Below are positions 6,141 to 48,975 of a DNA stretch of 64,000 nt, one piece after another (position 1 is the first letter of the stretch; each line of letters opens with the position of its first letter). Under the pieces are notes generated by a model, which was not told where the DNA came from, did no database searches, and saw only the letters and a list, made by a program, of their open reading frames with translations. The stretch is from Candidatus Oxydemutatoraceae bacterium (GTDB lineage: Bacteria > Pseudomonadota > Gammaproteobacteria > Poriferisulfidales > Oxydemutatoraceae): NCBI GenBank assembly GCA_965223735.1, contig OZ245010.1:1712397-1776396 (forward strand), written 5' to 3'. The translations under genes and the position numbers were made by a program.

Positions 6141-6853
6141 TGGTTTCACTGCACCTGACAGTTGCTGATCTCGACTATGCCGTGCGTGGTCACACGCTGT
6201 TGCGCGACATCAATTTCACCAGCGATGCCGATGCCTGCACCGCGTTGCTCGGCGCCAACGGTGCGGGCAAGACCACGCTGTTGCGGCTTTGCCATGGTCT
6301 GATCGAGCCGAGCGGCGGCGACATCCGCTGGGGTGACGCGTCGCCGCGCGACCTCGGCGGACGCATCGCGATGGTGTTCCAGAGACCCCGTCTGCTCAGA
6401 CGCAGCGCCTACGCCAACGTCGATTACGTCCTGCGTCTGCATGGGTTTTCGGACGAGGAAAGACGGCGGTGCATCACCGAGGCGTTCAGGCTGGTCGGCC
6501 TCGAGCACCGTGCGACACATCAAGCGCATTTGCTGTCCGGCGGCGAGCAACAGCGGCTTGCGGTCGCGCGCGCCTGCGCACTCAGCCCGGACGTTATCCT
6601 GATGGATGAGCCGACCGGCCGGCTTGATATGGAATCCACTGAGCGGGTTGAGGATGCGATTAGAAGCCTCAAGCGTGCCGGCACCAAGATCATCTTCACG
6701 TCGCATAATCTTTCTCAGGTCAGGCAATTGTGCGACGATGTTATTTTTCTCGATCGCGGGTGTCTGATTGCGCACGCCGCGTGCGAGGAGTTTTTCAGCA
6801 GCACCGGGAACAAGACGATATGCGATTTTCTCCGCCTGCAAGCCGCTTTCTGA
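6140..6853 (+). CDS. ABC transporter ATP-binding protein (TupC-like)
   Basis: Walker A GANGAGKTT, ABC signature LSGGEQQRLAVARA, Walker B ILMDEP. Start overlaps the permease stop. Confidence 0.7.
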   Translation: MVSLHLTVADLDYAVRGHTLLRDINFTSDADACTALLGANGAGKTTLLRLCHGLIEPSGGDIRWGDASPRDLGGRIAMVFQRPRLLRRSAYANVDYVLRLHGFSDEERRRCITEAFRLVGLEHRATHQAHLLSGGEQQRLAVARACALSPDVILMDEPTGRLDMESTERVEDAIRSLKRAGTKIIFTSHNLSQVRQLCDDVIFLDRGCLIAHAACEEFFSSTGNKTICDFLRLQAAF

Positions 6854-7695: not shown

Positions 7696-7710
7696 CGCGG
7701 ATCGGCCGGA

Positions 7711-8265
7711 TCAGCGCGGTGCCGGTTGCATCAGCGTCAATTCGCGCCCCGACTGGCTGAAGTCGAGGCGCTTGAGGAACTCCATGCCGAGCAGGATGCT
7801 GTCGCCCTCCATGTGCGGGTTGATACTGCCGTTGAGGTCGTCGAGACGGATGCCGCCGACTTCAACGCTGTCGAGGCGGGTGCGGTAAACGGTGACCGTG
7901 CCGTTTGCGGTGCGGGCATAAAACGGCGCGCCGTGCACGAGGTTCAGCTTGTTCGCCACTGCCGCGGGGATGTTCACGTCGCTTGCGCCGGTGTCCACCA
8001 GAAAGTTGACCGGGCGGCCGTTGATGTTGCCGCTCGTGACGTAATGGCCGTAACGGTTGCGTACCAGCACAACGCGCATACCGCCGTCCACAAGCCGCTC
8101 GGACACCGGCGCCGTGTTCGGGTTGTAGAGTTTGACCAGATAATCTTCAAAGAACAGAAACAACAGCACCAACACCGAGATCCAGGTCGCCGTGAGCATG
8201 AACCGTCCGTAGCGGCGGCTGACCGGCGCTTCCGGGTGCGGGGGTTCGTCATGGCCGTGGTTCAT
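7711..8265 (-). CDS. Retropepsin-like aspartic protease (TIGR02281 family), membrane-anchored
   Basis: N-terminal TM segment, DTGAS catalytic motif (FLVDTGASDVNIP) and a clan AA fold. Confidence 0.6.
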   Translation of the reverse strand: MNHGHDEPPHPEAPVSRRYGRFMLTATWISVLVLLFLFFEDYLVKLYNPNTAPVSERLVDGGMRVVLVRNRYGHYVTSGNINGRPVNFLVDTGASDVNIPAAVANKLNLVHGAPFYARTANGTVTVYRTRLDSVEVGGIRLDDLNGSINPHMEGDSILLGMEFLKRLDFSQSGRELTLMQPAPR

Positions 8266-8328
8266 TTCGGGAATTATATAACTTCGGACATTCGGGACCG
8301 TTCGCGTCTGCACTTTGAAGATGAACGT

Positions 8329-9066
8329 TCAGTCGGTTTCTGCGACCATCAATTCGCGCGCTTTTTCTGCAAGTTGTTTGCGGTCGCCGTCGCCGGGCAG
8401 GCTGTCGGTGTAGCGCACGACGGCGTGTATGCACGGCTCGCCGAGCACCGCGAGGGCATGGGTGAAGAACGGCACGTCGCTGGTGTAGGGCGCTTTCTCG
8501 TGAACGCCGTCGTGTGCGCTGTTGCACGGGTAAGTGATGACCATCGGCTGCACCCACGCATGGGTGTCGATCGCGGCCATGAACAGGCGGGGGTGAAAGC
8601 GCTGTATTTCGGTGCCGTCCGAAGTCGTGCCTTCGGGAAAGAACGCGACGCTGGCGCCGACGCGCAGGCGTTCGCTGATCAACTGCGCCGCGGTTTCCGC
8701 GCCGGCGCCGCGGTCTATGAACAAGGTGCCGGCTTTGCGCGCGAGATAACCGATGATCGGCCAGCGCGCGACCTCGGCTTTCGACAGAAAACTCACCGGT
8801 TGCAGGCTGCCGACGATCACGATGTCCATCCACGAGATATGGTTGGCGACGACCAGCGACGCGCCTTCGGCGGGTTTGCCGTGAATATGCAGGCGGATGC
8901 CGACCAGTCGCGTGCAGGTGCGCAGCCACCAGCACACGATGCCGCGTTGCCGGGCGTTGCCCGCTTTATGTCCGTCGGGCGTCAGCGCGAAGATGCACAG
9001 CAGTATGCCGATGACGACGTGGATGCCGATCAGCGGGAGACGGATTGCAATGCGCAGGACGCTCAT
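8329..9066 (-). CDS. 1-acyl-sn-glycerol-3-phosphate acyltransferase family (PlsC/LPLAT)
   Basis: NHISWMDI (HX4D acyltransferase motif) and FPEGTTS motif. N-terminal TM segment. Confidence 0.75.
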   Translation of the reverse strand: MSVLRIAIRLPLIGIHVVIGILLCIFALTPDGHKAGNARQRGIVCWWLRTCTRLVGIRLHIHGKPAEGASLVVANHISWMDIVIVGSLQPVSFLSKAEVARWPIIGYLARKAGTLFIDRGAGAETAAQLISERLRVGASVAFFPEGTTSDGTEIQRFHPRLFMAAIDTHAWVQPMVITYPCNSAHDGVHEKAPYTSDVPFFTHALAVLGEPCIHAVVRYTDSLPGDGDRKQLAEKARELMVAETD

Positions 9067-9541
9067 GCGGGATCGGCCGTGTCGGGTCGCAACCCGTCCG
9101 GCGCCGGGTGAATGTCAACCAGTCGCGTGCAGGTGCGCAGCCACCAGCGCACGATGCCGCGCTGCCGCGTGCTGCCCGTTCTATGTCTGTCGGGTGTCAG
9201 CGCGAAGATGCACAGCAGTATGCCGACGACGACGTGGATGCCGATCAGCGGGAGACGGACGGCGATGCGCAGGGCGCTCATGCGGGATCGGTCGGGGTGG
9301 ATCGGAACCCGTCCGGCGCTGGGTGGAGATCGATCAGCCGCGTGCAGGTGCGCAGCCACCAGTGCACGATGCCGCGCTGCCGCGTGCTGCCCGTTCTATG
9401 TCTGTCGGGCGTCAGCGCGAAGATGCACAGCAGTATGCCGATGACGACGTGGATGCCGATCAGCGGGAGACGGATTGCAATGCGCAGGACGCTCATGCGG
9501 GATCGGCCGTGTCGGGTCGCAACCCGTCCGGCGCCGGGTGG
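8896..9541. repeat. Three tandem ~215-bp copies of the acyltransferase 5' end (about 45 codons) plus its upstream region
   Basis: Copies end at about 9110, 9326 and 9541 with a few substitutions. This produces the pseudo-ORFs 9063..9359(-) and 9278..9496(-), which repeat [18 protein letters not shown]. Confidence 0.8.
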
Positions 9542-21200: not shown

Positions 21201-21388
21201 CTTCGTGCCAAGCGGCACTTTCGCCGATGGATATTCTTCGGGGTAGGGTTTTTATCCTCCACCGCACGTTGAAAAATTCGGCATCCCAAGTCAATTAGGC
21301 CGGTTGGTTTGTCATGCTTATCCGCCTCAAGCAATGCCCATCCTATGGAATTGCTGCCGAGATCAAGCCCTAACACCTTCTTGCTCAT
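18280..21388 (-). CDS. cas9: Cas9 (type II-C), with the reading frame interrupted near 18566-18572
   Basis: RuvC-I MSKKVLGLDLGSNSIGWAL at the N-terminus, HNH motif NTEIDHILPLSRSLDDSYMNKV and RuvC-III HRHHAIDAVV. The 942-aa frame stops at 18563. The last ~100 aa (GKDYEFVMALHINDLVSI..., alignable to the NmeCas9 PAM-interacting domain) continue in another frame as the 18280..18675 ORF. No csn2 or cas4, hence II-C. Confidence 0.85.
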
Positions 21389-21416
21389 AGATGCATTCTC
21401 GTATATACTGGCCAGT

Positions 21417-21527
21417 AGTATAACTGACCAAGGCCTATCGATTAGCTTTTCATACCAATGAAATATCTTTTTCGTAGGCAACGCTTTTAAGCGACCAAGA
21501 GCCCTCCCAGCGGGGGCTCTTTTAATA
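21417..21527 (+). ncRNA. Candidate tracrRNA: a 23-nt anti-repeat plus downstream hairpins and terminator. Strand assignment is uncertain.
   Basis: 21417-21439 (AGTATAACTGACCAAGGCCTATC) is the exact reverse complement of repeat positions 14-36. It lies 28 nt upstream of the cas9 ATG. On the plus strand it is followed by hairpins (TTTCAT-ACCA-ATGAAA, CGCTT-TT-AAGCG) and an intrinsic terminator at 21497-21527. Confidence 0.45.
21497..21527 (+). terminator. Rho-independent terminator (8-bp stem followed by TTTT)
   Basis: aagagccc-tcccagcg-gggctctt followed by tt. Confidence 0.5.
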
Positions 21528-24035: not shown

Positions 24036-24151
24036 CGCCCACACCCCACGCTGAACCGCCGTTTCCATTCCGGGTCGCGGCGGCGAGGCGGTTCAAATCA
24101 CGGGTGCAGGCCGTCCGGTTGCGTCCCCGGCTCGCGTTCATGCTTCAGGTC
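24036..24151 (-). pseudogene. Degenerate duplicate of the apaH 3' end (about 40 codons, with W->stop and an internal ~110-bp deletion)
   Basis: Minus-strand translation DLKHEREPGTQPDGLHP*FEPPRRRDP..RRFSVGCG matches ApaH DLGHKREPGTQPDGLHPWFEPPHRRDP...RRFSVRCGE encoded at 28140-28380. Nucleotide identity is clear over two blocks. Confidence 0.55.
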
Positions 24152-24244
24152 TATAATGAATGTTGATCGGATCAAATCGCCCAACGATCCGTTAAATAGA
24201 CTCGTTGCTATCTTGACAGGAAGTGATATTGATATGGAAAAACC

Positions 24245-26326
24245 ATGAGACAGAATGCTTTGAATCACTTGCGGATCGCACTTGGTGATCCTCAAGCGGA
24301 GTTCAGGGATGGGCAATGGGAAAGTATTTCGCAGCTTTTAGATCGTAGAAGGGTGCTTGTCGTCCAGCGTACCGGTTGGGGGAAAAGCATGGTTTATTTT
24401 TTGGCGACAAAGCTTATTCGAGAGTCGGGTTCAGGGCCAACCTTATTAATTTCTCCGCTATTATCATTAATGCGCAATCAGATTGAGGCTGCCGCGCGAA
24501 TTGGCATTACACCCAGGAAGATAGACAGTACCAATACCGGCGAATGGGATCAGATCAGGCAGGAGTTGACCGCTGATCAGGTAGATATATTGCTGATTTC
24601 TCCCGAACGCCTTGCAAATGCTTCCTTTCGCCGGCAAGTTTTCCCTGTTATTGCAGAAAACATCGGGCTTTTTGTGATTGACGAGGTTCACTGTATCTCA
24701 GACTGGGGGCATGATTTCAGACCGGATTACAAGCGTATCGTTCGTGTCCTTCAAGCTATTCCTTCCAATGTTCCGGTGCTGGCAACAACGGCAACAGCCA
24801 ATGACAGGGTTGTGGATGATGTCAAGTCGCAACTCGGGGATGACATTGAATTGGCCAGAGGTTCTTTAGTCAGAGAAAGCCTCAAACTTCAGAATATAAA
24901 TATGCCCAGTCCCGCAGCAAGAATGGCTTGGCTGGCACAGACTATTCCAAATCTTCCGGGCAGTGGAATAATCTATACTCTGACTCAGCGCGATGCAGAA
25001 CGACTCACTGAATGGCTTCAGCGCAACAGAATTCGTGCGGAAGCCTATCATGCCGACATCTCAAACCGCGAAGTGTTGGAACAGCGGTTGCTTGATAATG
25101 AAGTAAAAGTTCTGGTTGCCACCGTTGCTTTGGGGATGGGATTTGACAAGCCTGACTTGGGGTTTGTAATTCATTTTCAAAGGCCTGCTTCCGTCGTTCA
25201 TTACTATCAACAGGTTGGTCGTGCCGGTCGTGCTGTTAAAGAGGCGTATGGCATTCTGCTTTGTGGCGAGGAGGACGATCACATTGCAGATTACTTCATA
25301 CGCAGTGCCTTTCCACCTCAGCAGCATATTACCGCCATCCTTGAAACGCTTGATAAGGCGGATGATGGCCTGCCACCATCATCAATGCAAAATTTTTTAA
25401 ATATCAGCGGGTCACAAATTAAAAAAACGATCAAATATCTGACCATAGAATCCCCTTCTCCGATTGTAAAAGACGGTTCTAAATGGTATGCGACAGCTTC
25501 GGCGGCTGACTATGCAATTGATCAGGGGTATATAGAGGCAATTACCCGGATCCGGAGACAGGAACAGCGTCAGATGCAGGAATATATGGAACACAGAGGA
25601 TGCCTGATGGCATTCCTCCAAAATGCGCTCGATGACCCCAACTCACAGGGCTGCGGTAAATGCCGGAATTGTAACCCCGGACTTCTGCTTTCTGAACAGT
25701 ACAGCGATGAATTGGCAAACCAGGCGGCACTCTTTCTTAAAAGAGGCTGTCAACCAATCAAGCCTCGCAAGCAATGGCCCGCAGAGAATATGTTCAAACA
25801 TTATCCACTTGGAGGAAGGTGGATTCCACCAAAATTTCGAGCCTCTAAAGGTCGTGCCCTGAGTCTGTGGCGTGATGCCGGTTGGGGGCAACTCGTTGCC
25901 AAAGGGAAATATGAAACTGGAAGTTTTGCAGATGAGCTTGTAACCGCGTGTGTCGAGATGATTGCAGCATGGGATCCCAGACCGCCCCCCGAATGGTTGA
26001 CCTGCATACCTTCACTTGATCATCCTGAGTTAGTTCCGGATTTTGCACGGCGTTTAGCGGGTGGCCTGAAGCTGCCGTTTATTCCCTGTGTTCGGAAAGC
26101 AAGGCAGAATGATCAACAGAAAACCAGGGAAAACAGCTTTCAGAAAGCACGAAATTTGGATGGTGTTTTTGAAATCAACCTTGAACGGAATGATCCGTGC
26201 CTGTTGATCGACGACGTGGTTGACTCGGGGTGGACTTTTACCGTTGTATCCGCTTTGTTGCGTCAGGCGGGTTGCACGGCGGTTCGTCCTCTGGCATTGG
26301 CGCTTAATTCTCCAAGGATGAATTGA
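24245..26326 (+). CDS. RecQ-family SF2 DNA helicase with a RecQ-type Zn-binding motif, C-terminally fused to a ComF/GntX-type phosphoribosyltransferase (PRTase) domain
   Basis: Motif I RTGWGKS, motif II DEVHCISDWGHDFRPDY (RecQ DEAH box), III ATTATA, VI QQVGRAGR. Cys cluster CLMAF..GCGKCRNCNP like the RecQ zinc finger. C-terminal type-I PRTase signature NDPCLLIDDVVDSGWTF. GC about 47%. Confidence 0.8.
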   Translation: MRQNALNHLRIALGDPQAEFRDGQWESISQLLDRRRVLVVQRTGWGKSMVYFLATKLIRESGSGPTLLISPLLSLMRNQIEAAARIGITPRKIDSTNTGEWDQIRQELTADQVDILLISPERLANASFRRQVFPVIAENIGLFVIDEVHCISDWGHDFRPDYKRIVRVLQAIPSNVPVLATTATANDRVVDDVKSQLGDDIELARGSLVRESLKLQNINMPSPAARMAWLAQTIPNLPGSGIIYTLTQRDAERLTEWLQRNRIRAEAYHADISNREVLEQRLLDNEVKVLVATVALGMGFDKPDLGFVIHFQRPASVVHYYQQVGRAGRAVKEAYGILLCGEEDDHIADYFIRSAFPPQQHITAILETLDKADDGLPPSSMQNFLNISGSQIKKTIKYLTIESPSPIVKDGSKWYATASAADYAIDQGYIEAITRIRRQEQRQMQEYMEHRGCLMAFLQNALDDPNSQGCGKCRNCNPGLLLSEQYSDELANQAALFLKRGCQPIKPRKQWPAENMFKHYPLGGRWIPPKFRASKGRALSLWRDAGWGQLVAKGKYETGSFADELVTACVEMIAAWDPRPPPEWLTCIPSLDHPELVPDFARRLAGGLKLPFIPCVRKARQNDQQKTRENSFQKARNLDGVFEINLERNDPCLLIDDVVDSGWTFTVVSALLRQAGCTAVRPLALALNSPRMN

Positions 26327-26329
26327 TAA

Positions 26330-28135
26330 ATGAACAATCTTTTAACAGACGATACGAAATCGATAATGCTGCTCTGTGGCGTGCTTGGAAAAGCGCGCTC
26401 CATAAAACCACTCACGCAATCAGAATACAACAGGGTAGCCCGCTGGCTGATCGGTGAGAAAATGCGGCCGGCGGATCTGCTCCGATATGAAAATGTAGAT
26501 TTGGCGGCAATAAATTCCGGGATCGAGCTGCAACGATTGAAATCCCTGCTCGGAAGAGGCGTTCAGCTTGGGTTTGCTGTAGAGGAATGGCAACAGAACG
26601 GCATTTGGGTTTTGAGCCGAAGCGACCGGGATTATCCGGCACGGTATAAAAAGCATCTGAAGAATGAAGCACCTCCGCTTCTTTTCGGAGTAGGCGACAG
26701 GTCTCTTTTGCAGGGTGGTGGAGTTGCAATTGTCGGTTCGCGGAATGTGGACGGTGACGGAGAGGATTTTGCCCGTAAAGTGGCTGAGCTATGCGCTTAC
26801 AACAGAATGCCGGTTGTTTCAGGGGGGGCTCGCGGGGTTGACCAGATTGCCATGACCGCCGCACTTGATGCGGGAGGTGTGGTAATAGGCGTTCTTGCTG
26901 AAAATCTTCTGAGGAGAAGTCTTGAACGCAATGCACGCAGGGCAATCTCTGATGACCAGTTGCTTTTAATATCTCCTTACCGCCCGGATGCCCGCTTTAC
27001 AGTCGGGACGGCAATGGGGCGAAATAAGTTGATCTATGCCATGGCTGATTACGGCCTGGTCGTGAGTGCTGAGTATAAAAAAGGCGGCACCTGGGCCGGG
27101 GCGGTGGAAGAGCTGAAACGGGAAAATCCTCTACCGGTTTTTGTGAGATCGGGCGCAAATGTTCCTGTCGGCAACACAGAGTTGCTGTGTTCAGGTGCTC
27201 TGGAGTATCAGGAAGTGAAATATCGGGAAGAGCTGGGTCAACACCTCGCTGATCTTGCCAAGATTGTAAAAGGTCAAGAACAAGCACAGATCGACAGATC
27301 AGGGAAAGATGAAAAACAGGGAGTTCTTCCTATTGGTCCAACGATGGACAGTTCCGCGGTGGCGCCGGGACCCGGCATTTACGAGACTGTATTACCGGTG
27401 ATCATTGATCATCTGGGATCCCCAACCGCCTCCGGTGAATTATCGAAAACCCTGGACGTGTCGAAAGCACAGCTGTATCGCTGGCTCAGAAAGGCTGTGG
27501 ATGAAGGACGGATCCAAAAACTACTAAGTCCTGTGAGATATCAGGTAATAGAGGCGGAACCGGAAACCATTTACGAAGCCGTATTGCCGGTGATCATTGC
27601 TCATCTGGGATCATCAACTGCGGTCGATGAATTATCGAAAGCTCTGGACGTGTCGAAAGCACAACTGAATCACTGGCTCAAAAAAGCCGTGGATGAAGAA
27701 AGGATCCGAAAGCTATCGCAGCCCGTAAGGTATCAGGCAATGGAAGCGGCGCAGACAACCATTTGCGAAGCCGTCTCGCCGGTGATCATCAGTCATCAAA
27801 CTATTTACGAAGCTGTATTGCCGATGATCATTGCTCATCTGGGATCCCCAACTGCACCCGGTGAATTATCGAAAACGCTGGACGTGTCGAAGGTACAGTT
27901 GAACAGCTGGCTCAAAAAGGCCGTGGATGAAGGACGGATCCAAAAGTTATCGCAGCCCGTAAGGTATCAGGCAATGGCAGCGGAGCCGACAACCATTTAC
28001 GAAGCCGTATTGCCGGTGATCATTGCTCATCTGGGATCATCAACTGCGGTCGATGAATTATCGAAAACTCTGGACGTGTTGAAGGTACAGTTGAACAGTT
28101 GGCTCAAAAAAGCCGTGAATGAAGGAAGGATCTGA
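26330..28135 (+). CDS. DprA/Smf (SLOG-fold) domain protein with four C-terminal ~63-aa tandem winged-helix-like repeats
   Basis: DprA Rossmann core VAIVGSRNVDG..VVSGGARGVDQIAMTAALDAGGVVIGVLAENL. The C-terminus carries 4 repeats of IYEAVLPVIIAHLGS.TA..ELSKTLDVSK.QLN.WLKKAVDEGRIQKLSQPVRYQA. Starts 4 nt after the helicase-PRTase stop. Confidence 0.75.
   Translation: MNNLLTDDTKSIMLLCGVLGKARSIKPLTQSEYNRVARWLIGEKMRPADLLRYENVDLAAINSGIELQRLKSLLGRGVQLGFAVEEWQQNGIWVLSRSDRDYPARYKKHLKNEAPPLLFGVGDRSLLQGGGVAIVGSRNVDGDGEDFARKVAELCAYNRMPVVSGGARGVDQIAMTAALDAGGVVIGVLAENLLRRSLERNARRAISDDQLLLISPYRPDARFTVGTAMGRNKLIYAMADYGLVVSAEYKKGGTWAGAVEELKRENPLPVFVRSGANVPVGNTELLCSGALEYQEVKYREELGQHLADLAKIVKGQEQAQIDRSGKDEKQGVLPIGPTMDSSAVAPGPGIYETVLPVIIDHLGSPTASGELSKTLDVSKAQLYRWLRKAVDEGRIQKLLSPVRYQVIEAEPETIYEAVLPVIIAHLGSSTAVDELSKALDVSKAQLNHWLKKAVDEERIRKLSQPVRYQAMEAAQTTICEAVSPVIISHQTIYEAVLPMIIAHLGSPTAPGELSKTLDVSKVQLNSWLKKAVDEGRIQKLSQPVRYQAMAAEPTTIYEAVLPVIIAHLGSSTAVDELSKTLDVLKVQLNSWLKKAVNEGRI
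27371..28135 (+). repeat. In-frame tandem DNA repeat, about 4.2 copies of about 189 bp, encoding the C-terminal repeats of the DprA-like gene
   Basis: Units begin ATTTACGAAGCCGTATTGCCGGTGATCATTGCTCATCTGGGATC at 27571, 27803 and 27991, with a diverged first unit at 27371 and a partial 42-bp unit at 27761. Confidence 0.85.
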
Positions 28136-28139
28136 TCCT

Positions 28140-28955
28140 TTACTCCCCACACCTCACGCTGAACCGCCGTTCCTGTCCCGGGTCGAGGCGGAACGCGGTC
28201 AGGCTGCCGCCCCACACGCAACCGGTGTCGAGGCCGAGAACCCCATCGCGGCGGATGAAACCGAGCGCCGACCAGTGGCCGAAGATCACCGTGTAGGCCG
28301 GGTCGCGGCGGTGGGGCGGTTCAAACCACGGGTGCAGGCCGTCCGGTTGCGTCCCCGGTTCGCGTTTATGTCCCAGGTCGATGCGTCCGTCGGCGCTGCA
28401 GAAGCGTAGCCGGGTCATCACATTGATGATCACGCGCGCACGGTCGTCGCCGTTTAAATTGTCGTCCCAGTATTCGGGTGTGTTGCCGTAGATGTTCTTG
28501 AGGAACGTCCGGTAGTCGTCCGCACGCAGTCGCGTTTCAACTTCTCCGGCAAGTGCCTGCGCGGTGTTGATGTCCCATCCGGGTATCAGGCCCGCGTGCA
28601 CCATCGCGAGGCGGCGTTCATGGTCCACGATGAACAGCGGGTGTCGTCTCAGCCACTCGATCAGTTCGCGGCGGTCGGGGCTTTGCAGCACCGCGTCGAG
28701 TGTGCCGTCGGCCGGCGGGTGTTCGCAGCCGGCGTCGGTTCTCAGCAGATGGAAGTCGTGATTGCCGAGCACGCACCGCACGCACGCGCCGAGGCTTTTC
28801 AGGAAGCGCAGGCTTTCGAGCGAATCGCTGCCGCGGCTGACGAGATCACCGGTCAGCCAGAGTTCGTCGTGCGCCGGGTCAAACTCGATCTCGTCGAGCA
28901 GTTGTTTCAGCGGGTTGAGGCAGCCTTGCAGATCGCCGATCGCGTAGAGTGACAT
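28140..28955 (-). CDS. apaH: Bis(5'-nucleosyl)-tetraphosphatase, symmetrical
   Basis: MSLYAIGDLQGC..LTGDLVSRG..GNHD metallophosphatase motifs. apaG-apaH synteny. Confidence 0.85.
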   Translation of the reverse strand: MSLYAIGDLQGCLNPLKQLLDEIEFDPAHDELWLTGDLVSRGSDSLESLRFLKSLGACVRCVLGNHDFHLLRTDAGCEHPPADGTLDAVLQSPDRRELIEWLRRHPLFIVDHERRLAMVHAGLIPGWDINTAQALAGEVETRLRADDYRTFLKNIYGNTPEYWDDNLNGDDRARVIINVMTRLRFCSADGRIDLGHKREPGTQPDGLHPWFEPPHRRDPAYTVIFGHWSALGFIRRDGVLGLDTGCVWGGSLTAFRLDPGQERRFSVRCGE

Positions 28956-28989: not shown

Positions 28990-29367
28990 TCAGTGAAGCA
29001 CGCGCGGTGCGGCGAGCATGAATTCCTGTATTTCGGCGTCAAATTCCTTGCCGTCTTCGGCGAGCATCTGGTAACTGCCGCGCATGGTGCCGATCGGCGT
29101 GTCGATCAGGGTGCCGCTGGTATAGCGGAAGGCTTCACCCGGGCGCAGGAACGGCTTTTCCCCGACCACGCCTTCGCCGCGCACTTCCTGCACCTTCTCG
29201 TTGGAATCGGTGATCACCCAGTGCCGTGACAGCAGTTGTGCCGCGACGCAGCCGTGGTTGGTGATCGTGATCGTATAGGCGAATACGTAACGTTCGTTGT
29301 CTGCATCGGACTGATCTTCCAGGTAGTGCGTTTGCACGTCCACGTCGATGTCATAGCGGTTTTTCAT
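28990..29367 (-). CDS. apaG: ApaG (DUF525) protein
   Basis: 125 aa, alignable to E. coli ApaG (DNERYVFAYT.TI.N....QLL.R.W.IT). Start chosen at MKNRYD. Confidence 0.85.
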   Translation of the reverse strand: MKNRYDIDVDVQTHYLEDQSDADNERYVFAYTITITNHGCVAAQLLSRHWVITDSNEKVQEVRGEGVVGEKPFLRPGEAFRYTSGTLIDTPIGTMRGSYQMLAEDGKEFDAEIQEFMLAAPRVLH

Positions 29368-30187
29368 AGTGGTTGCCTCGCTTTCCTGATGCTGTTTGCT
29401 TGCCGTCAATCAAGTTTAACATGCCGAGGAAATCATCTACCCCCAGCGTTTCGGGGCGGGCGGCGGCGGACAGATTGAGCCGTGCGAAATCGGTGTCGTC
29501 GAGGGTGCCCGAGAAGATCCGCCCGATGGTTTTGCGCCGTTGCGAGAACGCACGTCCGACAAGGTTGAGGAACGCCCGCCGGCGTTGCGGGTCGAACGGG
29601 CACGGGCGCGGCAGCAGCCTGACCAGTGAGGAACTGACTTGTGGTGGCGGCGAGAACGCGCTGGGGGCGACGTCAAACAGATGGCGGACTTCCACGAAAC
29701 ACGCCGCGGTCACGCTCAGCCGCGAGTAATTGCGCGTGCCGGGTTGCGCGGCGAGGCGTTCAGCAACTTCGGTCTGTAACATCAGGTGCATGTCGCGGAT
29801 GTGTTCGCAGGTGTTGAACAAATGCATCAGCAACGGCGTCGAAACGTTATAGGGCAGGTTGCCGATGACTCTGATCTTGCGGTCCGTGTGCAGCGCTGCG
29901 AAGTCAAAGTCGAGCGCGTCGCGGCAGTGCAGCGTGAAGGCTTTGTTTTCGGCAAAGCGTTGCGTCAGCCGGTCGGCGAGCGCGTGGTCGATTTCAACGG
30001 TGTCGAGGTGGGCGCAGCGTTCAAGCACCGGCGCGGTCAACGCGCCGAGGCCGGGGCCGATTTCGACGATCGCCTCGTCCGGGGCCGGCGAGATCGCCTC
30101 AACCACGCGCGCGACGGTCTGTGTGTCGGTGAGGAAATGCTGGCCGAAGTGTTTTTTAGCCGGGGTGTTCATCGCCTTGAGGCTCAT
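29351..30187 (-). CDS. rsmA: 16S rRNA (adenine1518-N6/adenine1519-N6)-dimethyltransferase
   Basis: FGQHFL...[17 protein letters not shown], KsgA family. pdxA-ksgA-apaG-apaH order. Start is uncertain (30187 or 30172). Confidence 0.85.
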   Translation of the reverse strand: MSLKAMNTPAKKHFGQHFLTDTQTVARVVEAISPAPDEAIVEIGPGLGALTAPVLERCAHLDTVEIDHALADRLTQRFAENKAFTLHCRDALDFDFAALHTDRKIRVIGNLPYNVSTPLLMHLFNTCEHIRDMHLMLQTEVAERLAAQPGTRNYSRLSVTAACFVEVRHLFDVAPSAFSPPPQVSSSLVRLLPRPCPFDPQRRRAFLNLVGRAFSQRRKTIGRIFSGTLDDTDFARLNLSAAARPETLGVDDFLGMLNLIDGKQTASGKRGNHYEKPL

Positions 30188-30770
30188 CGTTCGGGGGCCT
30201 GTTTTATCCGGCTTGCTCACTGGCGGTTCTCAGTGCTCATCGTTCGGGGATTCGTTGTTTCAACGGTGTCGAGGCGGCACCGCGTTCGAGCACCGGCGCG
30301 GTCAACGCGCCGAGGCCGGGGCCGATTTCGACGATCGCCTCGTCCGGGGCCGGCGAGATCGCCTCAACCACGCGCGCGACGGTCTGTGTGTCGGTGAGGA
30401 AATGCTGGCCGAGGTGCTTTTTAGCCGGGGTGTTCATCGCCTTGAGGCTCATCGTCCGGGGGCCTGTTTTATCCGGCTTGTTCACTGGCGGTTCTCAGTG
30501 CTCATCGTTCGGGGATTCGTTGTTTCAATGGTGTCGAGGCGGCACCGCGTTCGAGCACCGGTGCGGTCAATGCGCCGAGGCCGGGGCCGATTTCGACGAT
30601 CGCCTCGTTCGGGGCCGACGAGATCGCCTCAACCACGCGCGCGACGGTCTGTGTGTCGGTGAGGAAATGCTGGCCGAGGTGCTTTTTAGCCGGGGTGTTC
30701 ATCGCCTTGAGGCTCATCGTTCGCGTGTTTGTTTTGCCTGCCTGCTCACCGGCGCCCCTCAATGTTGATC
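29995..30770. repeat. Three tandem ~265-bp copies of the ksgA 5' end (about 60 codons) plus its upstream leader
   Basis: Copies start at about 29995, 30260 and 30525. The pseudo-ORFs 30237..30485(-) and 30502..30762(-) repeat [23 protein letters not shown]...[17 protein letters not shown]. Confidence 0.8.
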
Positions 30771-30872
30771 GCCTGGAAGTTCACTGTCCGGGATCCTCGT
30801 CGCATAAGCATTTCACGCCGATACCCAACGACACATAACTACTCACTGATCGGTTTCCGTCGCACCGGTGTT

Positions 30873-31859
30873 TCACGTTGCGTGGCGGTACAGGTTGTCG
30901 GCGAGGCGGCCGGCCTGCACGACGGCGGCGCGGAGGCTGGCGGCGGATGCGCGTCCGGTGCCCGCGAGATCAAAAGCGGTGCCGTGATCCACTGAGGTGC
31001 GTACAAAAGGCAGGCCGAGCGTGATGTTCACGGTGTTGCCGAAGCCGGCGTGCTTGATCACCGGCAGTCCCTGGTCGTGGTACATCGCGACGACGGCGTC
31101 GCAGTCGGTCAATTGTCGCGGCGTGAACGCGGTGTCGGCGGGCAACGGCCCGTTCAGGTTCATCGTCGCGGACAGTTGGTCGAGCACCGGGCGAATGATC
31201 TGCGTCTCTTCGTGCCCGAGATGACCGTCTTCGCCGGCGTGAGGGTTGAGTCCGCACACCGCGATGCGCGGTTCATCGATGCCGAACATTCGCCGCATAG
31301 CCTGATCGACGACGCGCAATGTCCGTTCGAGGCGCGCGCACGTCAGCGCCTGCGCGACGGCGCTCAACGGCAGGTGTGTTGTCGCCAGTGCGACGCGCAG
31401 CGTTTCGCAGACGAGCATCATCACCGTGTCGCAGCCGCAGGCATCGGCGAGATATTCGGTGTGGCCGGAGAAAGCAATGCCCGCCTGATTGATCACGGCC
31501 TTGTTGACCGGTGCGGTGACCAGCGCATCGTAAGCACCGTCGCGACAGCCTGCGATACCTGCGTCAATCTGTGCCAGCACGTAGCGCGCGTTATGCGGGT
31601 CGGCGCGGCCGGCGGCGGCGGGCGCGTCCGCCGTGACCTGCGCCAGTTGCAGGGGATTGGGCGTTGCGGACGACTCCATAGGCAACTCCTCTGGGCTGAT
31701 TTTGCTTCCCAGCAGTTCAGCGCGTTCGGCCAGCACCTGGCGGTCGCCTATCAGGACCAATTGATCGACGAGATGTTCTTTAGTCTGGTCGGCGCCGAGC
31801 GCCAGCGCAATATCGGGGCCGATACCGGCGGGGTCGCCCGTTGTGACGGCAACTTTCAT
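30873..31859 (-). CDS. pdxA: 4-hydroxythreonine-4-phosphate dehydrogenase
   Basis: 328 aa, PdxA family (TGDPAGIGP.., GHTE, CGLNPHAGE). surA-pdxA-ksgA synteny. Confidence 0.85.
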   Translation of the reverse strand: MKVAVTTGDPAGIGPDIALALGADQTKEHLVDQLVLIGDRQVLAERAELLGSKISPEELPMESSATPNPLQLAQVTADAPAAAGRADPHNARYVLAQIDAGIAGCRDGAYDALVTAPVNKAVINQAGIAFSGHTEYLADACGCDTVMMLVCETLRVALATTHLPLSAVAQALTCARLERTLRVVDQAMRRMFGIDEPRIAVCGLNPHAGEDGHLGHEETQIIRPVLDQLSATMNLNGPLPADTAFTPRQLTDCDAVVAMYHDQGLPVIKHAGFGNTVNITLGLPFVRTSVDHGTAFDLAGTGRASAASLRAAVVQAGRLADNLYRHAT

Positions 31860-31865
31860 CGGCGT

Positions 31866-32345
31866 TGCAGCAACGGTGTTCCAGCAACCAGGCGGGTGTT
31901 CAAAAGACAGGCGAGGTCATGCGGTTTCCGGGATGACCACGCGGCGCGGGAATGACCCGCAGCGGAACTTGCGGAGGGACCAGTGAGCAGCGGTGTTCCA
32001 GCAGCCAGGCGGGTGTTCAAAAGACAGGCGGGGTCATGCGCTTTCCGGGATGGCCACGCGGCGCGGGAATGACCCGCAGCGGAACTTGCGGAGGGGTCAG
32101 TGAGCAACGGTGTTCCAGCAACCAGGCGGGTGTTCAAAAGACAGGCGGGATCGTGCGCTTTCCGGGATGGCCACGCAGCGCGGGAATGACCCGCAGCGGA
32201 ACTTGCGGAGGGGCCAGTGAGCAGCGGTGTTCCAGCAGCCAGGCGGGTGTTCAAAAGACAGGCGGGATCGTGCGCTTTCCGGGATGGCCACGCGGCGCGG
32301 GAATGACCCGCAGCGGAACTTGCGGAGGGGTCAGTGGGTGGCGGC
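31866..32345. repeat. Intergenic tandem repeat, 4 x ~120 bp, between pdxA and surA
   Basis: The unit gcaacggtgttccagcaaccaggcgggtgttcaaaagacaggcgXggtcatgcgXtttccgggatgXccacgcggcgcgggaatgacccgcagcggaacttgcggagggXXcagtgagca occurs four times. Each unit contains a hairpin CCGCA-GCGGAACT-TGCGG. Confidence 0.8.
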
Positions 32346-32385
32346 AGCATTTTCGCAACAAGGCAGGCGCTCAAACAGCGCGTGA

Positions 32386-33675
32386 TCAGATCCTGATCTC
32401 GACTCGGCGCTCTTCCCGGAGCTTCAACAACCACAACCGCGTCTCCTCATCCGACTTTCTCTTCCTGATTTCCGCGATCGCCTGTCGGTGTATGGTGTCG
32501 TCGCCGATGTCGTGCTCGCGCGTGTCGAGGACTTCCAGAAGATGCCAGCCGAAGGACGACTTGAATGGGCCGACGATGTCGCCTTTCCCGTGCGCCCGTG
32601 CGACCGCTTCGGCAAATTCGGGTACGTAGTTGCCCGGACTCGACCAGCCCAGATCGCCGCCCTTCATCGAACTCAGCGGATCCTGCGAGTATCTGCACGC
32701 AAAGTCTTCAAAGTCGGCGCCGTTTTGAAGCTGGCGTTTGATCTTCATAAGTTTGCGCCGTACTTTGTCGTCGTCGTCGATCGGGTTGGTCTGTATCAGT
32801 ATATGGCGCACGTGATGCTGCAATTGCATCATCTCCGGGCTGCCGCTGCGACTCGCCAGCAGTTGGAACAGGTGCAGCCCGTCGCGGTTGGAGATCACCG
32901 GGCTGGTGGGGGTGTCGCGTAGCGCCTTGAGGCGCCGGCGCACCGGGGCGGGCAGGTTTTCGGCGCGACGCCAGTCGAGATCCTTGACCTGATAGCGCAG
33001 TTGCGTGCGGCCGTCGGCTGCCGCGGCACGCCACAGCCGGGCGAAGCGCTTGCGCAAGTCGATCAGCGAGGAGAACGAGTCGTTGCGCAGTTGCCGCCGC
33101 ACCCGCATGAGGCGTGTTCTCGCCGCGGCGGACTTGTCGGCGGATTCCTGCGGCGGCACCCGAAGGTGCACGACATGGTACTCGGCGTTGCGTCGGCGGT
33201 TTTCATCGAGCATCAGCACGTTTTCTATTTCCTGCTCGCTGACTTCAATCCGATTGATCACTTCGCGCTGTATCAGCTGCCGGATGGTCAGTTCGTCGCG
33301 TATTTTCCGGTTGACCTCCTCAAAGCTGCGGTCATCTCTTTCAATCTGCCGTTTGAATTCAGCCAGGCTCATGTTATTGCGCTTCGCCATCTCTTCCACC
33401 GCGCGGCTGAGCGTGATGTCGTCGATGACGATGCCGAGCCGCTTGGCTTCCTGCAATTGCAGTTGCTGGATGACCATTTGTTGCAGCACTTGCGCAGTGA
33501 GCGTGCGTTCGTCGGGTAGTTCGCGGTTCTGTTGCGCCAGCGCCGCTTTCGCGCGCCGGATGTTTTGTCTGAGTTGGCGTTCAGTGATGGTCTTGTTTTC
33601 GACGACGGCGACGATGCGGTCGAGTCCCATCGGTTGCGCCGGCGCCGACGCCGGCATCAGTATGGTCGCCGCCAT
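32386..33675 (-). CDS. surA: Periplasmic chaperone/peptidyl-prolyl isomerase SurA
   Basis: Signal peptide, SurA N-domain and two parvulin domains (..GGDLGW..). Start chosen at MAATILMPASA. The upstream part of the supplied ORF is Arg-rich non-coding-like sequence. Confidence 0.8.
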   Translation of the reverse strand: MAATILMPASAPAQPMGLDRIVAVVENKTITERQLRQNIRRAKAALAQQNRELPDERTLTAQVLQQMVIQQLQLQEAKRLGIVIDDITLSRAVEEMAKRNNMSLAEFKRQIERDDRSFEEVNRKIRDELTIRQLIQREVINRIEVSEQEIENVLMLDENRRRNAEYHVVHLRVPPQESADKSAAARTRLMRVRRQLRNDSFSSLIDLRKRFARLWRAAAADGRTQLRYQVKDLDWRRAENLPAPVRRRLKALRDTPTSPVISNRDGLHLFQLLASRSGSPEMMQLQHHVRHILIQTNPIDDDDKVRRKLMKIKRQLQNGADFEDFACRYSQDPLSSMKGGDLGWSSPGNYVPEFAEAVARAHGKGDIVGPFKSSFGWHLLEVLDTREHDIGDDTIHRQAIAEIRKRKSDEETRLWLLKLREERRVEIRI

Positions 33676-33845
33676 TGCGGCCGCGGCGCCCGCTGCAGCG
33701 ATGCGGGATTGGGCGTTGCCGGGCCGACGGATCGCCCGACGACGTAGCCTGGTGCCCGTCGCGGTAATCCGCAGTCGGGTGGCGCACGGCGGGCGTGGTG
33801 CAGGCGTCGGCCTGTCTGCCCGGTTTGCTCGTCCGTTGGCGGAGG

Positions 33846-35897
33846 TCATCGTTTGCGGTAATCCGATATCCATTTTTCAATCAGGCCGCTGCCGGTGTTA
33901 GTGCCCAGTGTGGCCAGCCCGCGCAGGCTGAACTCTATGCCGATCCTCGTATTGTAGTCGAGCGAGCCGTTGGCGATGGACTTGTCAGCGCCGTCGATGT
34001 CGCTCAGCAGGCGTTGTCCCGCCAGACGCAAACTCCAGCAGCAGGTGTCGTAGCGCAGGCCGGTCATAACGCCGATGTCTTCGTTCTCCCGCAGGTCGTA
34101 GCGCCAGCCGCCGAACCAGCGCCAGCGCGTGCCCAGCGGCAGGTGGAAACCGATCTCGCTCTGACTGAAGCCTTCGTCGCCGCGCCGGTAGCGGTTCGAC
34201 AAGCTGATGATCTTGTTGTTGCCCGCGTTCAGCGACAGGCGCACGGCGTGGCGTGCCGGCAACTCCCTTTCGGTGTCCCAGATCAGCGACGAGGTGAATT
34301 TCAGTTTCTCGTTCAGGTTCAGCGCGAACTCTGAGGTCAGGTTCGAGTAGTCGTAGCGGTTGGTGCTGAGGTCTTCGTCGGGCAGGCCGACGTCGCGGTT
34401 TCGGAAATAACTCGTGTGCCCGACGCTGAAGCGCAGTGCTTCCCGGCCGCTGCGCGCGTGGATCAGGCGGCTGCTCAGTGCGAGCGTCAGTTGGTCGGCG
34501 TCGCCGACCCGGTCGGCGCCGTTGAAGCGGTTTTCCTCAAACAGTTGCGAGAAGCGGAACTCGGACGCGCCGGTGTCAAATACCGGGAAGTCGCTTTGAT
34601 CTCTGCGCGGCACGTGGAGGTAGAAAAGTTCGGGTTCAATCGTGTGCCGGTAGCGCTGTTGGTGGATGTTCTTTTCAAAGACCAGGCCGGTACGCAGGCT
34701 GAACCACGGCAGCGTGCGGCTTTCGTCTGGGCGGCGGTCGAGGGTGTAGTCGGTGTGGCGCAGGGCGACGCTCGGTGTGAAGTGAAAGCCAGGGCGGCGG
34801 TACGGCCAGCGCAGCGTGATCTCACTGTCGAGACGTTCACCTTCGGCGGTCTCCGACATGTCGGGCGCGTCGTATTTGCGGTTGAAGTCGGTCCATTCGG
34901 TGCGCAGGCCGAGGTCGAGGTTCAGGTGGGGGGAATACAGATTCTTCGACAGCGCTACGCTCGGGTGCCTTTCGTACAGCCGGGTTTCGCGCCGGGCGTC
35001 GTTGTCGGTGCGCTGGAAGTTTTCGGCGGCGAGGTTCAGGTGCCAACCGCGCCACACGTAGTCGGCGAGGATTTTGCTGTTGAGGTAGTTTTCGTCGATC
35101 AGGTCGAAAGAACTGCTCAGGTCTTCAATATAGTCGCTGTCCGAGACTTTTTGAAGATGCAGTTGCACACGTAGTTTGTCGCCGGCTCTGGTCTGATGTC
35201 GCAGCGAATACGAGTAGCGTTCGTCGTCGCCGTTATTGTCGTAGTCGTTGTCGCTGAGCCAATCGCCTTTGAGTGTGCCTTCGCTGAAGCGTCTCAGATA
35301 GCGGTACTTGCCCGCGAACTGCACACCGCGTTTACTCAGGAACCGCGGTTCGAGAGTGACGTCGTGGTTGGGTGCGAGGTTGAAATAATAAGGAAAGGCG
35401 AGTTCCGCGCCGGTTTCGCTGCTTTCGCCGATCTCGGGCGTGAGGAAGCCCGACTTGCGCCGGTTCTCGAGCGAGACATGGTAGCGCGGCAGGTACAGCA
35501 GTGGCGTGTTGCCGACGACGAGCCATGCGTTTTTGGCGGTGCCGGTGTTGGTTTTGCGGTCGAGCGTGAAACGGTCGGCGGACAGGAACCAGGCTGGCTT
35601 TTTCGTGTCGCAGTTGGTGTAGCGCACGTTGCCGCTGGCCTGTACGCGCCGGGCGTTCGGGTCGTAGTCTATGCGTTCGGCGCGAAGGCGGTTGTCGTTC
35701 TGTCTGAATTGCGCTGCGCCCGACAGGCGCGAGCGTCCGTTGATGCGCGCCACAAAATGGTCCGCCGACGCTTCAATCGCGTCGGCCCCCGCCGTTTCGG
35801 AGGCATCCCGCAACGGGCACAACTCGGCTGCGGGCAGGGTCGAGGCGGCCGCGAGCAGCACCGTCGCAGTCAGCGGTCTGAGCGTCGGCGTCTTCAT
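33846..35897 (-). CDS. lptD: LPS-assembly outer-membrane protein LptD
   Basis: About 680-aa beta-barrel OMP with signal peptide MKTPTLRPLTATVLLAAAS. Position upstream of surA. Confidence 0.85.
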   Translation of the reverse strand: MKTPTLRPLTATVLLAAASTLPAAELCPLRDASETAGADAIEASADHFVARINGRSRLSGAAQFRQNDNRLRAERIDYDPNARRVQASGNVRYTNCDTKKPAWFLSADRFTLDRKTNTGTAKNAWLVVGNTPLLYLPRYHVSLENRRKSGFLTPEIGESSETGAELAFPYYFNLAPNHDVTLEPRFLSKRGVQFAGKYRYLRRFSEGTLKGDWLSDNDYDNNGDDERYSYSLRHQTRAGDKLRVQLHLQKVSDSDYIEDLSSSFDLIDENYLNSKILADYVWRGWHLNLAAENFQRTDNDARRETRLYERHPSVALSKNLYSPHLNLDLGLRTEWTDFNRKYDAPDMSETAEGERLDSEITLRWPYRRPGFHFTPSVALRHTDYTLDRRPDESRTLPWFSLRTGLVFEKNIHQQRYRHTIEPELFYLHVPRRDQSDFPVFDTGASEFRFSQLFEENRFNGADRVGDADQLTLALSSRLIHARSGREALRFSVGHTSYFRNRDVGLPDEDLSTNRYDYSNLTSEFALNLNEKLKFTSSLIWDTERELPARHAVRLSLNAGNNKIISLSNRYRRGDEGFSQSEIGFHLPLGTRWRWFGGWRYDLRENEDIGVMTGLRYDTCCWSLRLAGQRLLSDIDGADKSIANGSLDYNTRIGIEFSLRGLATLGTNTGSGLIEKWISDYRKR

Positions 35898-36496
35898 GGC
35901 TGGCTGTGATCGAGTTGCCGCCAGCGGTTGAAGACGTTGCACAGGATGCGTGCGGTGATGTCGGCGTCATACGCCGCCGAGTGCGCTTTGTCGCTGTCCC
36001 ATTTGATGCCGATGGCTTCGGCGATTTTTGACAGCACTGTCTGTCCGTGAGCCAGCGCCCCCAGTGTGACCGTGTCGATGTTGCTGAAAGCGTGGAACGG
36101 GTTGTTCTTGAGGTGGTTGCGACTGACCGCGGCGTTGAGGAACTTCAGGTCAAACGCGGCGTTGTGGCCGACGAGGATCGCGCGGTTGCATTCATGTTTC
36201 TTGAGCGCGTCGTGCACTTGCGCGAACAGCATATTGAACACTTCCTTTTCCGGTTGTGCGTCGCGCGCGACGTCGAACGGATCAATGCAGTTGACCTTGA
36301 GCGAGGACTCCTCCATGTTCGCGCCCAAAAAAGGCTCGACCGCCCAGCACACGCTGCTTTTCGGGTACAGTAGCCGTTGCCGGTCAATGTCGATGAACAC
36401 CGCCGCTATTTCGAGCAGCGCGTCGGTGTTTTCGTTCAGGCCGCCGGTTTCGACATCTACAACCACCGGCAGGAAGCCGCGGAAGTAGTTTTTCAT
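35894..36496 (-). CDS. rnt: Ribonuclease T (DEDDh 3'-5' exoribonuclease)
   Basis: VVVDVETGG (Exo I), LVGHNAAFDLKFL (Exo II), H..YDA (Exo III). Confidence 0.85.
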   Translation of the reverse strand: MKNYFRGFLPVVVDVETGGLNENTDALLEIAAVFIDIDRQRLLYPKSSVCWAVEPFLGANMEESSLKVNCIDPFDVARDAQPEKEVFNMLFAQVHDALKKHECNRAILVGHNAAFDLKFLNAAVSRNHLKNNPFHAFSNIDTVTLGALAHGQTVLSKIAEAIGIKWDSDKAHSAAYDADITARILCNVFNRWRQLDHSQP

Positions 36497-48331: not shown

Positions 48332-48865
48332 ATGAACGTGAGTCTTGACCCGTTCCGTCCCATCGGTGAACTGCTTGAAAGCGGCGGGCCGGTGCTCGGG
48401 ATACTTCTCGTGATGACGTTCGTCATGTGGCTTCTGATCATTGAACGCTACTGGTACTTGTCGTTCCAGCAGCGGTTTTTCGCTGACGAGTTCGCCTCGC
48501 GCTGGCGGGCGCGCAGCGACCGGCGTTCACGCGCCGCCCGCATGATCCGTTCGTGCTGGCTTTCGCAGTTTCGCTGCCATCTTGAACAACGCATTGCCCT
48601 GATCAGGATGCTGGTCGGTATCAGCCTGCTGCTCGGCCTGCTCGGTACGGTAACCGGCATGGTCGGCGTATTTGAAGGACTGTCGGTATTCGGTGTCGGG
48701 GGTTCCGGCGGTATCCGGGCGGTCGCCGACGGCATTGCCGGCGCGGTCTTCCCCGCGATGGCCGGGATGGTTGCTGCGCTGTCGGGTGTGTATTTCTCTG
48801 CGCAGCTCAAAAAGCGCGTCGCGCACGCGGTGCGGGTATTGCGCGTGTGTCTGGCGCTGGAGTGA
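48332..48865 (+). CDS. exbB: ExbB/TolQ family protein
   Basis: 177 aa, three TM helices, LLGLLGTVTGMVGVF motif. Confidence 0.75.
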   Translation: MNVSLDPFRPIGELLESGGPVLGILLVMTFVMWLLIIERYWYLSFQQRFFADEFASRWRARSDRRSRAARMIRSCWLSQFRCHLEQRIALIRMLVGISLLLGLLGTVTGMVGVFEGLSVFGVGGSGGIRAVADGIAGAVFPAMAGMVAALSGVYFSAQLKKRVAHAVRVLRVCLALE

Positions 48866-48975
48866 GGGGCGATGATCAGAAGACATGGCGACCATGCTGA
48901 AAGCGCGTCGCGCACGCGGTGCGGGTATTGCGCGTGCGCCTGGCGCTGGGGTAAGGGGCGATGATCAGAAGACGC
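48811..48975. repeat. Tandem duplication, 2 x ~85 bp, spanning the exbB 3' end and exbD start
   Basis: aaagcgcgtcgcgcacgcggtgcgggtattgcgcgtg[t/c]g[t/c]ctggcgctgg[a/g]gt[g/a]aggggcgatgatcagaagac occurs twice (48811-48894 and 48893-48975). Confidence 0.7.

Follow-up and report, generated by a model that had tools for sequence, protein, structure and literature searches.

The 64,000-nucleotide (nt) stretch of DNA analyzed here (hereafter, the window) comes from contig OZ245010.1 (positions 1,712,397 to 1,776,396) of a gammaproteobacterium, "Candidatus Oxydemutatoraceae" bacterium. On its minus strand, between pdxA and the intact ksgA gene of an lptD-surA-pdxA-ksgA-apaG-apaH operon, lie three head-to-tail copies of a 265/266-bp unit that spans the start of ksgA (also named rsmA; 16S rRNA adenine dimethyltransferase). 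The array occupies positions 29992-30787, and each unit consists of a leader of ~70 nt followed by 196 nt of ksgA coding sequence, i.e., the first ~64 codons. From upstream to downstream, the locus is made up as follows (ORF, open reading frame).

30788-30872, minus strand: unique 85-nt spacer from the pdxA stop codon to the array
30523-30787, minus strand: unit 3, the furthest upstream, with the native, strongly diverged leader (30718-30787) and a cut-off ORF (30502-30717)
30258-30522, minus strand: unit 2 (265 nt), with an internal-type leader (30453-30522) and a cut-off ksgA ORF (30237-30452; 71 amino acids)
29992-30257, minus strand: unit 1 (266 nt), with an internal-type leader (30188-30257) and 196 coding nt from the start of the intact gene
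29351-30187, minus strand: intact ksgA/rsmA, with an ATG at 30187 (the ORF map also gives 30220)

Structure of the ksgA array

Tandem Repeats Finder (TRF) reports the array at 29992-30720, with a period of 265, 2.7 copies, 96% matches, and a score of 1358; a separate repeat search recovers three copies at spacings of 265 and 266, and the count comes to 3.0 once the diverged outer leader is included. These searches and the alignment of the units bear out the original prediction of a triple head-to-tail copy of the 5' end of ksgA together with its leader, and the coordinates it gave (29995-30770) lie close to, but short of, the actual span of 29992-30787. The period is constant, the copies run head to tail, and a novel junction recurs: GTTGAAA/CAACGAATCC is found at 30257/30258 and again at 30522/30523 (in longer form, CACCGTTGAAA/CAACGAATCCCC), the two occurrences being told apart by their flanks, ACCATTGAAA and ACCGTTGAAA. 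Such a junction is impossible in a single-copy locus, in which the sequence after GTTGAAA reads TCGACCAC. As read directly from the sequence, homology at the breakpoint amounts to 1-3 nt at most. Duplication of an attachment (att) site by a mobile element was ruled out, as the units abut without intervening DNA.

The downstream copy is a complete gene. It matches the Pfam family RrnaAD (PF00398) at E=3.4e-59 over profile positions 4-227 of 263, and this full domain, in the conserved surA-pdxA-ksgA-apaG-apaH context, identifies it as a member of the RsmA/KsgA family; its product is 100% identical to a protein (P0001) encoded on a 1,846,438-bp contig. Comparison with relatives places the true start probably at the ATG at 30172 (MNTPAKKH...). 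The two upstream ORFs (30237-30452 and 30502-30717) match the same profile at positions 4-51 of 263 only, shift frame, and end at a stop after 71 codons. Because they hold only the N terminus and motif I for S-adenosylmethionine (SAM) binding (the GxGxG SAM loop), these fragments almost certainly have no function as enzymes, and the best reading of the two upstream copies is as putative truncated pseudogene relics.

Divergence and polarity of the copies

The copies differ by 2.6-6%. Units 1 and 2 are identical at 68 of 70 leader positions and at 189 of 196 coding positions (6 substitutions and 1 indel in 196 nt), units 2 and 3 agree at 190 of 195 coding positions (5 differences in 195 nt), and the coding parts of units 1 and 3 are separated by 11 substitutions and 1 indel. 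Five G:C to A:T transitions are private to unit 3, and a 1-nt frameshifting deletion is common to both fragments. Two residue differences that had been noted previously are both present in the alignment: HFGQ in the intact copy corresponds to HLGQ in the fragments, and ERCAH becomes ERGAA because the common deletion shifts the reading frame.

Polarizing these changes against nine relatives shows that the fragments retain the ancestral states, CTC (Leu) and GGT-GC(C)-CGC (Gly-Ala-Arg), and that the intact gene carries the derived ones, TTC (Phe) and TGC-GCC-CAC (Cys-Ala-His). The duplication is therefore older than these changes, and the fragments are, at these sites, fossils of an earlier state of ksgA.

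In the internal leaders, the 15-nt start context CCCCGAACGATGAGC recurs as an exact copy. Each fragment ORF stops on the ATGA of this copy and is followed by a 7-codon ORF that ends in GTGA, the GTG of which is in frame with ksgA; the result is an unbroken ATGA/GTGA chain running from fragment ORF to mini-ORF to a GTG-started ksgA.

Comparable arrays in the window and in related genomes

The original prediction had singled out two further loci, a plsC-like one and exbD, and had argued for a cause common to all three. Both of these arrays are real, and, with the ksgA array, the window contains at least five medium-period arrays at gene boundaries, the others being the following.

8897-9541, minus strand: 215 bp x 3; last 44 nt of the gene for a DsbH-like thioredoxin, then ~57 codons from the start of a PlsC-family acyltransferase gene
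12649-12905, plus strand: ~111-115 bp x 2, 80-91% identical; 3' end of lgt plus lgt-thyA intergenic DNA
31869-32344, minus strand: 117 bp x 4 (TRF, 95% matches); confined to the surA-pdxA intergenic DNA (surA stop, 32386; pdxA start, 31859)
48811-48973, plus strand: 89 bp x 1.8; 3' end of an exbB-like gene, then codons 1-8 of exbD

In the 215-bp array, every cut-off ORF ends on the ATGA of the next copy, and in the 89-bp array, the cut-off ORF ends on the ATGA of the real exbD. The 117-bp array ends 10 nt short of the pdxA ATG and has no Rfam match.

The relatives used were the closest species-representative genome, a 1.94-Mb "Candidatus Oxydemutatoraceae" chromosome (OZ243040.1; locus L001) whose KsgA is 76% identical, and further loci (L161-L170) obtained through their KsgA proteins at 59-79% identity. 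Exact look-ups of PdxA and KsgA found no match and the collections contain no second assembly of the same species, and a scan of Joint Genome Institute (JGI) metagenomes gave nothing above 50% identity. The ksgA repeat itself is absent from the relatives examined, but five "Candidatus Oxydemutatoraceae"-like genomes among them, each independently assembled (L001, L162, L163, L164, and L170), carry comparable arrays at other boundaries.

L001: 146 bp x 3; leader plus 41 codons of the start of rnt (RNase T)
L001, 19217-19890: 168 bp x 4; last ~20 nt of a DsbH-like gene plus 44 codons of a YdjM-like gene
L162: 145 bp x 3.8, at the contig end; 3' end of an Asp-protease-like gene plus downstream DNA
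L163: 167 bp x 2.1; surA-pdxA spacer plus 12 codons of pdxA
L164: ~494 bp x 2; 3' end of plsC plus the start of the next gene
L170 (ERZ25071132 ctg816903_3x_l), 6791-9091: 92 bp x 25; 20-nt leader plus the first 24 codons of pdxA
L170: 308 bp x 3; convergent 3' ends of apaH and folA
L170: 159 bp x 6; 3' end of DsbH
L170: 139 bp x 2.8; rnt/lptD boundary

Applying a threshold of a TRF period of at least 60, at least 85% matches, and at least 1.8 copies, we counted 9 arrays in 186 kb of the lineage and 10 in 2,163 kb from 159 other loci recovered by the same searches (Poisson P=3e-7); the four arrays of L170 come in addition to this count. Density in the window and its relatives is thus ~10 times that in unrelated genomes, which, with the at least five boundary arrays of the window, upholds the view that several loci share a cause. 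Of the 10 control arrays, 6 belong to a single Rickettsiales metagenome-assembled genome (MAG; OZ253531.1), whose locus (L062) has six medium-period arrays within 20 kb (4957-19353) and is the sole control with a density like that of the lineage, as would fit the abundance of repeats for which Rickettsiales are known.

Neither the position nor the period nor the sequence of an array is conserved between genomes. At the surA/pdxA boundary, three genomes (those of the window, L163, and L170) carry unrelated arrays of 4, 2.1, and 25 copies, which shows recurrence, not turnover of one array.

As a separate observation, the 8897-9541 array of the window and the 19217-19890 array of L001 both begin in the last 20-44 nt of a DsbH-like gene, and the gene downstream differs (plsC-like and ydjM-like, respectively); in both, the cut-off ORFs stay in frame on entering the duplicated DsbH tail, whose stop codon terminates them.

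Gene boundaries, gene starts, and promoters

As a null expectation, units of the observed lengths were placed randomly on the gene maps of three array-free relatives. Three-quarters of placements (75%) are confined to the interior of a gene, which they would disrupt; a gene start is included in 74% of the remaining 25%, the tolerated placements. By comparison, all 14 boundary arrays leave genes intact (0.25^14, ~4e-9), and gene starts are present in 8-9 of the 14, which is no more than the 74% expected (binomial P=0.22). Arrays are also situated at 3' ends (L162 and L170), where two genes converge, and, at 31869-32344, in DNA that is wholly intergenic. With no disruptive array and no excess of starts, the shared architecture is therefore attributable to a filter for intact genes and not to a promoter-directed mechanism.

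Promoter-proximal amplification, one of two causes put forward in the original prediction, is thus not supported: arrays occur at 3' ends and between genes, gene starts do not exceed the 74%, ksgA is an internal gene of its operon, and a consensus scan of 29300-32500 on both strands, which covers sigma-70-like sites and no other promoter types, found none, leaving the unit without a recognizable promoter to duplicate. Nor does the leader resemble a cis-regulatory RNA (riboswitch, attenuator, or small RNA), as the region has no Rfam match at the gathering threshold and the fold z-score of the leader (-0.9) indicates no unusual structure.

A broader version, in which duplications are directed to gene starts by head-on conflicts of transcription with replication, through fork stalling and template switching, or by R-loops near the points at which transcription or translation begins, draws on the positive GC skew across the window, which sets the minus-strand operon head-on to replication, on experimental systems in which conflict-induced indels cluster near promoters and in the 5' parts of genes (PMC7451550), and on the several arrays that hold 41-64 codons of a gene start. 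We nevertheless judge it quite improbable, given the lack of a start excess, the arrays at 3' ends, in the convergent pair, and in intergenic DNA, and the position of ksgA inside an operon with no promoter-like site. Orientation shows no trend, with three arrays of the window head-on and two of the five in codirectional genes. We also considered particular boundaries as hot spots, since surA/pdxA and the DsbH 3' end were each struck in three genomes, and rejected them: the 6 coincident pairs do not differ significantly from the 4.5 expected by a birthday-type calculation.

Cut-off ORFs that end on the next start raise the question of function. Arrays might be retained to tune or buffer expression of the downstream gene, and possible routes are translational coupling along a stop-start chain of mini-ORFs, titration of KsgA autoregulation by ksgA 5' mRNA, and reversible variation in copy number. 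(KsgA of Escherichia coli was reportedly found by van Gemen and colleagues in 1989 to repress its own translation.) Consistent with this are the stop-start overlaps (ATGA, GTGA, or TGATG) of five other arrays, in which cut-off ORFs end exactly on the next start (plsC, exbD, pdxA of L163, rnt of L001, and pdxA of L170, where 21 of 24 units have a 30-codon ORF that terminates on the GTGA of the unit that follows), the unbroken chain at ksgA, and the sharp divergence of the internal leader from the native leader, which resembles an effect of selection. However, a simulated null from the array-free relatives yields a stop-start overlap in 34% of cases, from which the observed 5 of 9 is not significantly different (P=0.15), and we therefore discarded the frame rule itself; some arrays contain no gene start, and position, period, and sequence differ from genome to genome. 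Retention for function is, on balance, unlikely. About equally doubtful is a lineage-specific process or form of selection that builds serial "gene-start cassettes," with unit length set such that each cut-off ORF ends on the next start. If true, a coupled mini-ORF chain would set the expression of the intact downstream gene, and the diverged internal ksgA leader would represent a compensatory adaptation. A related possibility is a duplication-prone defect in replication or repair common to the array-rich members of the family.

The second cause named originally, mis-assembly of strain variants, would have single-copy ksgA starts from co-occurring strains chained by the assembler, or the copy number mis-set. 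The source is a metagenome-assembled contig, and the HLGQ and ERGA variants resemble what another strain might carry. Yet the GTTGAAA/CAACGAATCC junction, which cannot be produced from single-copy variants, is present twice in distinct contexts; the frameshifting deletion is common to the fragments, which hold ancestral states; the internal leaders are 34% off the native leader; five other assemblies, complete chromosomes included, have arrays of this type; all arrays keep genes intact, whereas an assembler would ignore gene boundaries; and an array of 800 bp is easily spanned by long reads. Mis-assembly is, therefore, very unlikely, to the point of being hardly credible.

Discussion

We interpret the locus as a genuine, evolved tandem segmental duplication that arose by illegitimate duplication, followed by unequal crossing-over, in a lineage prone to form or retain repeats of this kind (probability, roughly 0.78). 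In the route that we envisage, a segment of ~266 bp, from ~70 nt upstream of ksgA to codon ~64, would have been duplicated by illegitimate recombination or template switching, and unequal crossing-over between the repeats would have raised the number from two copies to three, a second step that is probably recent because the internal leaders are near-identical (68/70). As the unit spans the gene start, the downstream-most copy still forms a complete ksgA with its own leader, and the duplication is tolerated. The fragments would then have decayed slowly, acquiring the common 1-nt deletion and the transitions of unit 3, as the intact copy went on evolving as a gene. The same process may have been repeated throughout the lineage, yielding arrays with units of 89-494 bp at many gene boundaries. 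Where operons are compact, genes overlap, and duplications within genes are selected against, the survivors would almost inevitably include a gene start and/or end; a duplication that spans a boundary would survive with an intact copy of each flanking gene in place. The high array load could stem from a higher rate of formation, weak deletion pressure, or small population size.

Several observations weigh against this interpretation. The changes that separate the intact gene from the fragments are concentrated in a short stretch, with 4 substitutions and an indel within 15 nt, and no template for the clustered substitutions (30011-30028) was found within the window. The outer leader is identical to the internal leaders at 47 of 71 positions (34% diverged; homology reached by 4 of 2000 shuffles and thus above chance), whereas the adjoining coding parts differ by 2.6% (Fisher p=2.6e-11). 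A simple recent duplication fails to predict this contrast and so needs a supplement: it could be due to gene conversion with an array-edge effect or to selection on the internal leaders as compensatory evolution. (Targeted hypermutation of leaders was also considered and dropped, as unit-by-unit alignments of six arrays revealed no consistent pattern.) Moreover, tandem repeats are normally unstable (PMC11721125), and persistence to 3-6% divergence hints at weak deletion pressure or some benefit. Finally, the copy number in the source DNA is taken from the assembly, and the sample of the lineage amounts to ~255 kb, nearly all of it around one syntenic region.

The closest described phenomenon is that of Ehrlichia ruminantium, in whose genome, as relayed by two later articles, tandem repeats vary in copy number (2005; Frutos et al. 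2006, via PMC10710844 and PMC7343930). Like that species, the lineage examined here combines a small genome with many medium-period arrays in or beside noncoding DNA and with broken short-read assemblies, and, within the part of each genome sampled, its independent arrays are numerous and above the usual bacterial density. It differs in being a high-GC (~60%), gene-dense gammaproteobacterium with overlapping genes, in which arrays must therefore include gene ends, whereas Ehrlichia is an AT-rich, obligately intracellular alphaproteobacterium with a coding density of ~64%. Variation in copy number between strains is documented for Ehrlichia; the species of the window is represented by one assembly in the collections. 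The arrays in the 2005 E. ruminantium genome paper are also said to give rise to truncated gene fragments.

Classically, tandem duplication and amplification in bacteria proceed by an illegitimate or RecA-dependent duplication and then by unequal crossing-over (PMC11721125). As in the classical cases, copies are arranged head to tail, junctions have hardly any homology or none, and the arrays grow stepwise from two copies. However, classical duplications are kilobase-scale, comprise whole genes, are selected for dosage, and are quickly lost without selection; those of the lineage have units of 89-494 bp, include gene ends only, and have persisted to 3-10% divergence (up to ~20% in the oldest arrays). 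They also resemble the minisatellite or variable-number tandem repeat (VNTR) loci used for multiple-locus VNTR analysis (MLVA) typing (e.g., in Wolbachia; PMC3287509), which have units of tens to hundreds of bp, are often intergenic, and are prone to slippage or recombination. VNTRs are usually noncoding or in-frame protein repeats, whereas the unit of the ksgA, plsC, and rnt arrays comprises a gene start with its leader, and a series of cut-off ORFs results. The ksgA array is, in sum, one of many repeats at gene boundaries in the lineage and an unusually dense example of a known, ordinary process.

For annotation, the array matters as the source of two spurious short RsmA-like ORFs and as a risk for collapsed or broken assemblies. 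More broadly, in a gammaproteobacterial family with high-GC, gene-dense genomes that appear reduced (~1.7-2.4 Mb), gene-boundary arrays reach a density so far tied mainly to obligately intracellular Rickettsiales. Its array-rich members (the 1.85-Mb contig, OZ243040.1, ERZ24894577 ctg521947l, and ERZ25071132 ctg816903) and their array-poor relatives (ERZ25069810 ctg137305, ERZ26694896 ctg117875, and ERZ25067264 ctg836508) offer a natural comparison for the control of repeats by repair and recombination and for their tolerance by operons of overlapping genes.

Operon context

The remaining genes of the operon in the window are as follows.

33846-35942, minus strand: lptD (ORF map)
32386-33873, minus strand: surA (ORF map)
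30873-31859, minus strand: pdxA, intact, 328 amino acids (orthologues with the Pfam PdxA domain in syntenic loci)
28990-29409, minus strand: apaG (ORF map)
28140-28955, minus strand: apaH (ORF map)

In 9 of 11 relatives, pdxA and ksgA overlap or abut, and most relatives therefore have no spacer between them. Gaps are confined to the window, L001, and L167, and the three show no mutual homology. The 85-nt spacer of the window does not detectably resemble pdxA, ksgA, the repeat unit, or the intergenic DNA of relatives, in which no homologue of the leader was found either; the leader is not conserved. Local alignments gave weak and inconsistent signals for derivation of leader or spacer from the 3' end of pdxA or from ksgA.

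Additional features of the window

Sequence from the 3' end of apaH (28146-28382) is found again, at 87-89% identity, at 24038-24154; these pieces flank inserted genes that encode a DEAD/RecQ-like helicase with a phosphoribosyltransferase (PRTase)-like C terminus (24245-26326) and a DprA-like protein (26330-28135), and the region 24038-28382 looks like an insertion into the 3' end of apaH with target duplication. The C terminus of the DprA-like protein (27376-28135) is itself an in-frame repeat of 4-5 tandem helix-turn-helix-like modules of ~64-78 amino acids, with periods of 192/234 nt and 74-87% identity.

A protein of the flavin mononucleotide (FMN)-binding glutamate synthase family, encoded at 58696-60078, is unusually conserved, at ~88-90% identity across many unrelated taxa; some sources also name it methylamine-glutamate N-methyltransferase subunit C, and the window's own sequence is not among the matches listed. 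As a query for other regions of the lineage, it was rejected as too conserved (88% across many taxa) to single out the lineage.

The thyA-folA pair occurs twice (12908-14303 and 15002-16404) as 1.4-kb copies that are 95% identical and 2,094 bp apart; it is single-copy in relatives. The pair lies beside a low-GC (40-52%) island that holds a compact type II locus of clustered regularly interspaced short palindromic repeats (CRISPR) and Cas genes (16447-21481), with ~9 repeats of 36 nt (GTTGTGAATTGCGGATAGGCCTTGGTCAGTTATACT) at a period of 66, Cas1 (17388-18287, minus strand), and a small Cas9 of 972 amino acids (18563-21481, minus strand; HNH_4, RuvC_III, and Cas9_a). L163 also encodes Cas9 and Cas1, with a 32-repeat array, in a different neighborhood, beside tonB/exbBD and downstream of apaH.

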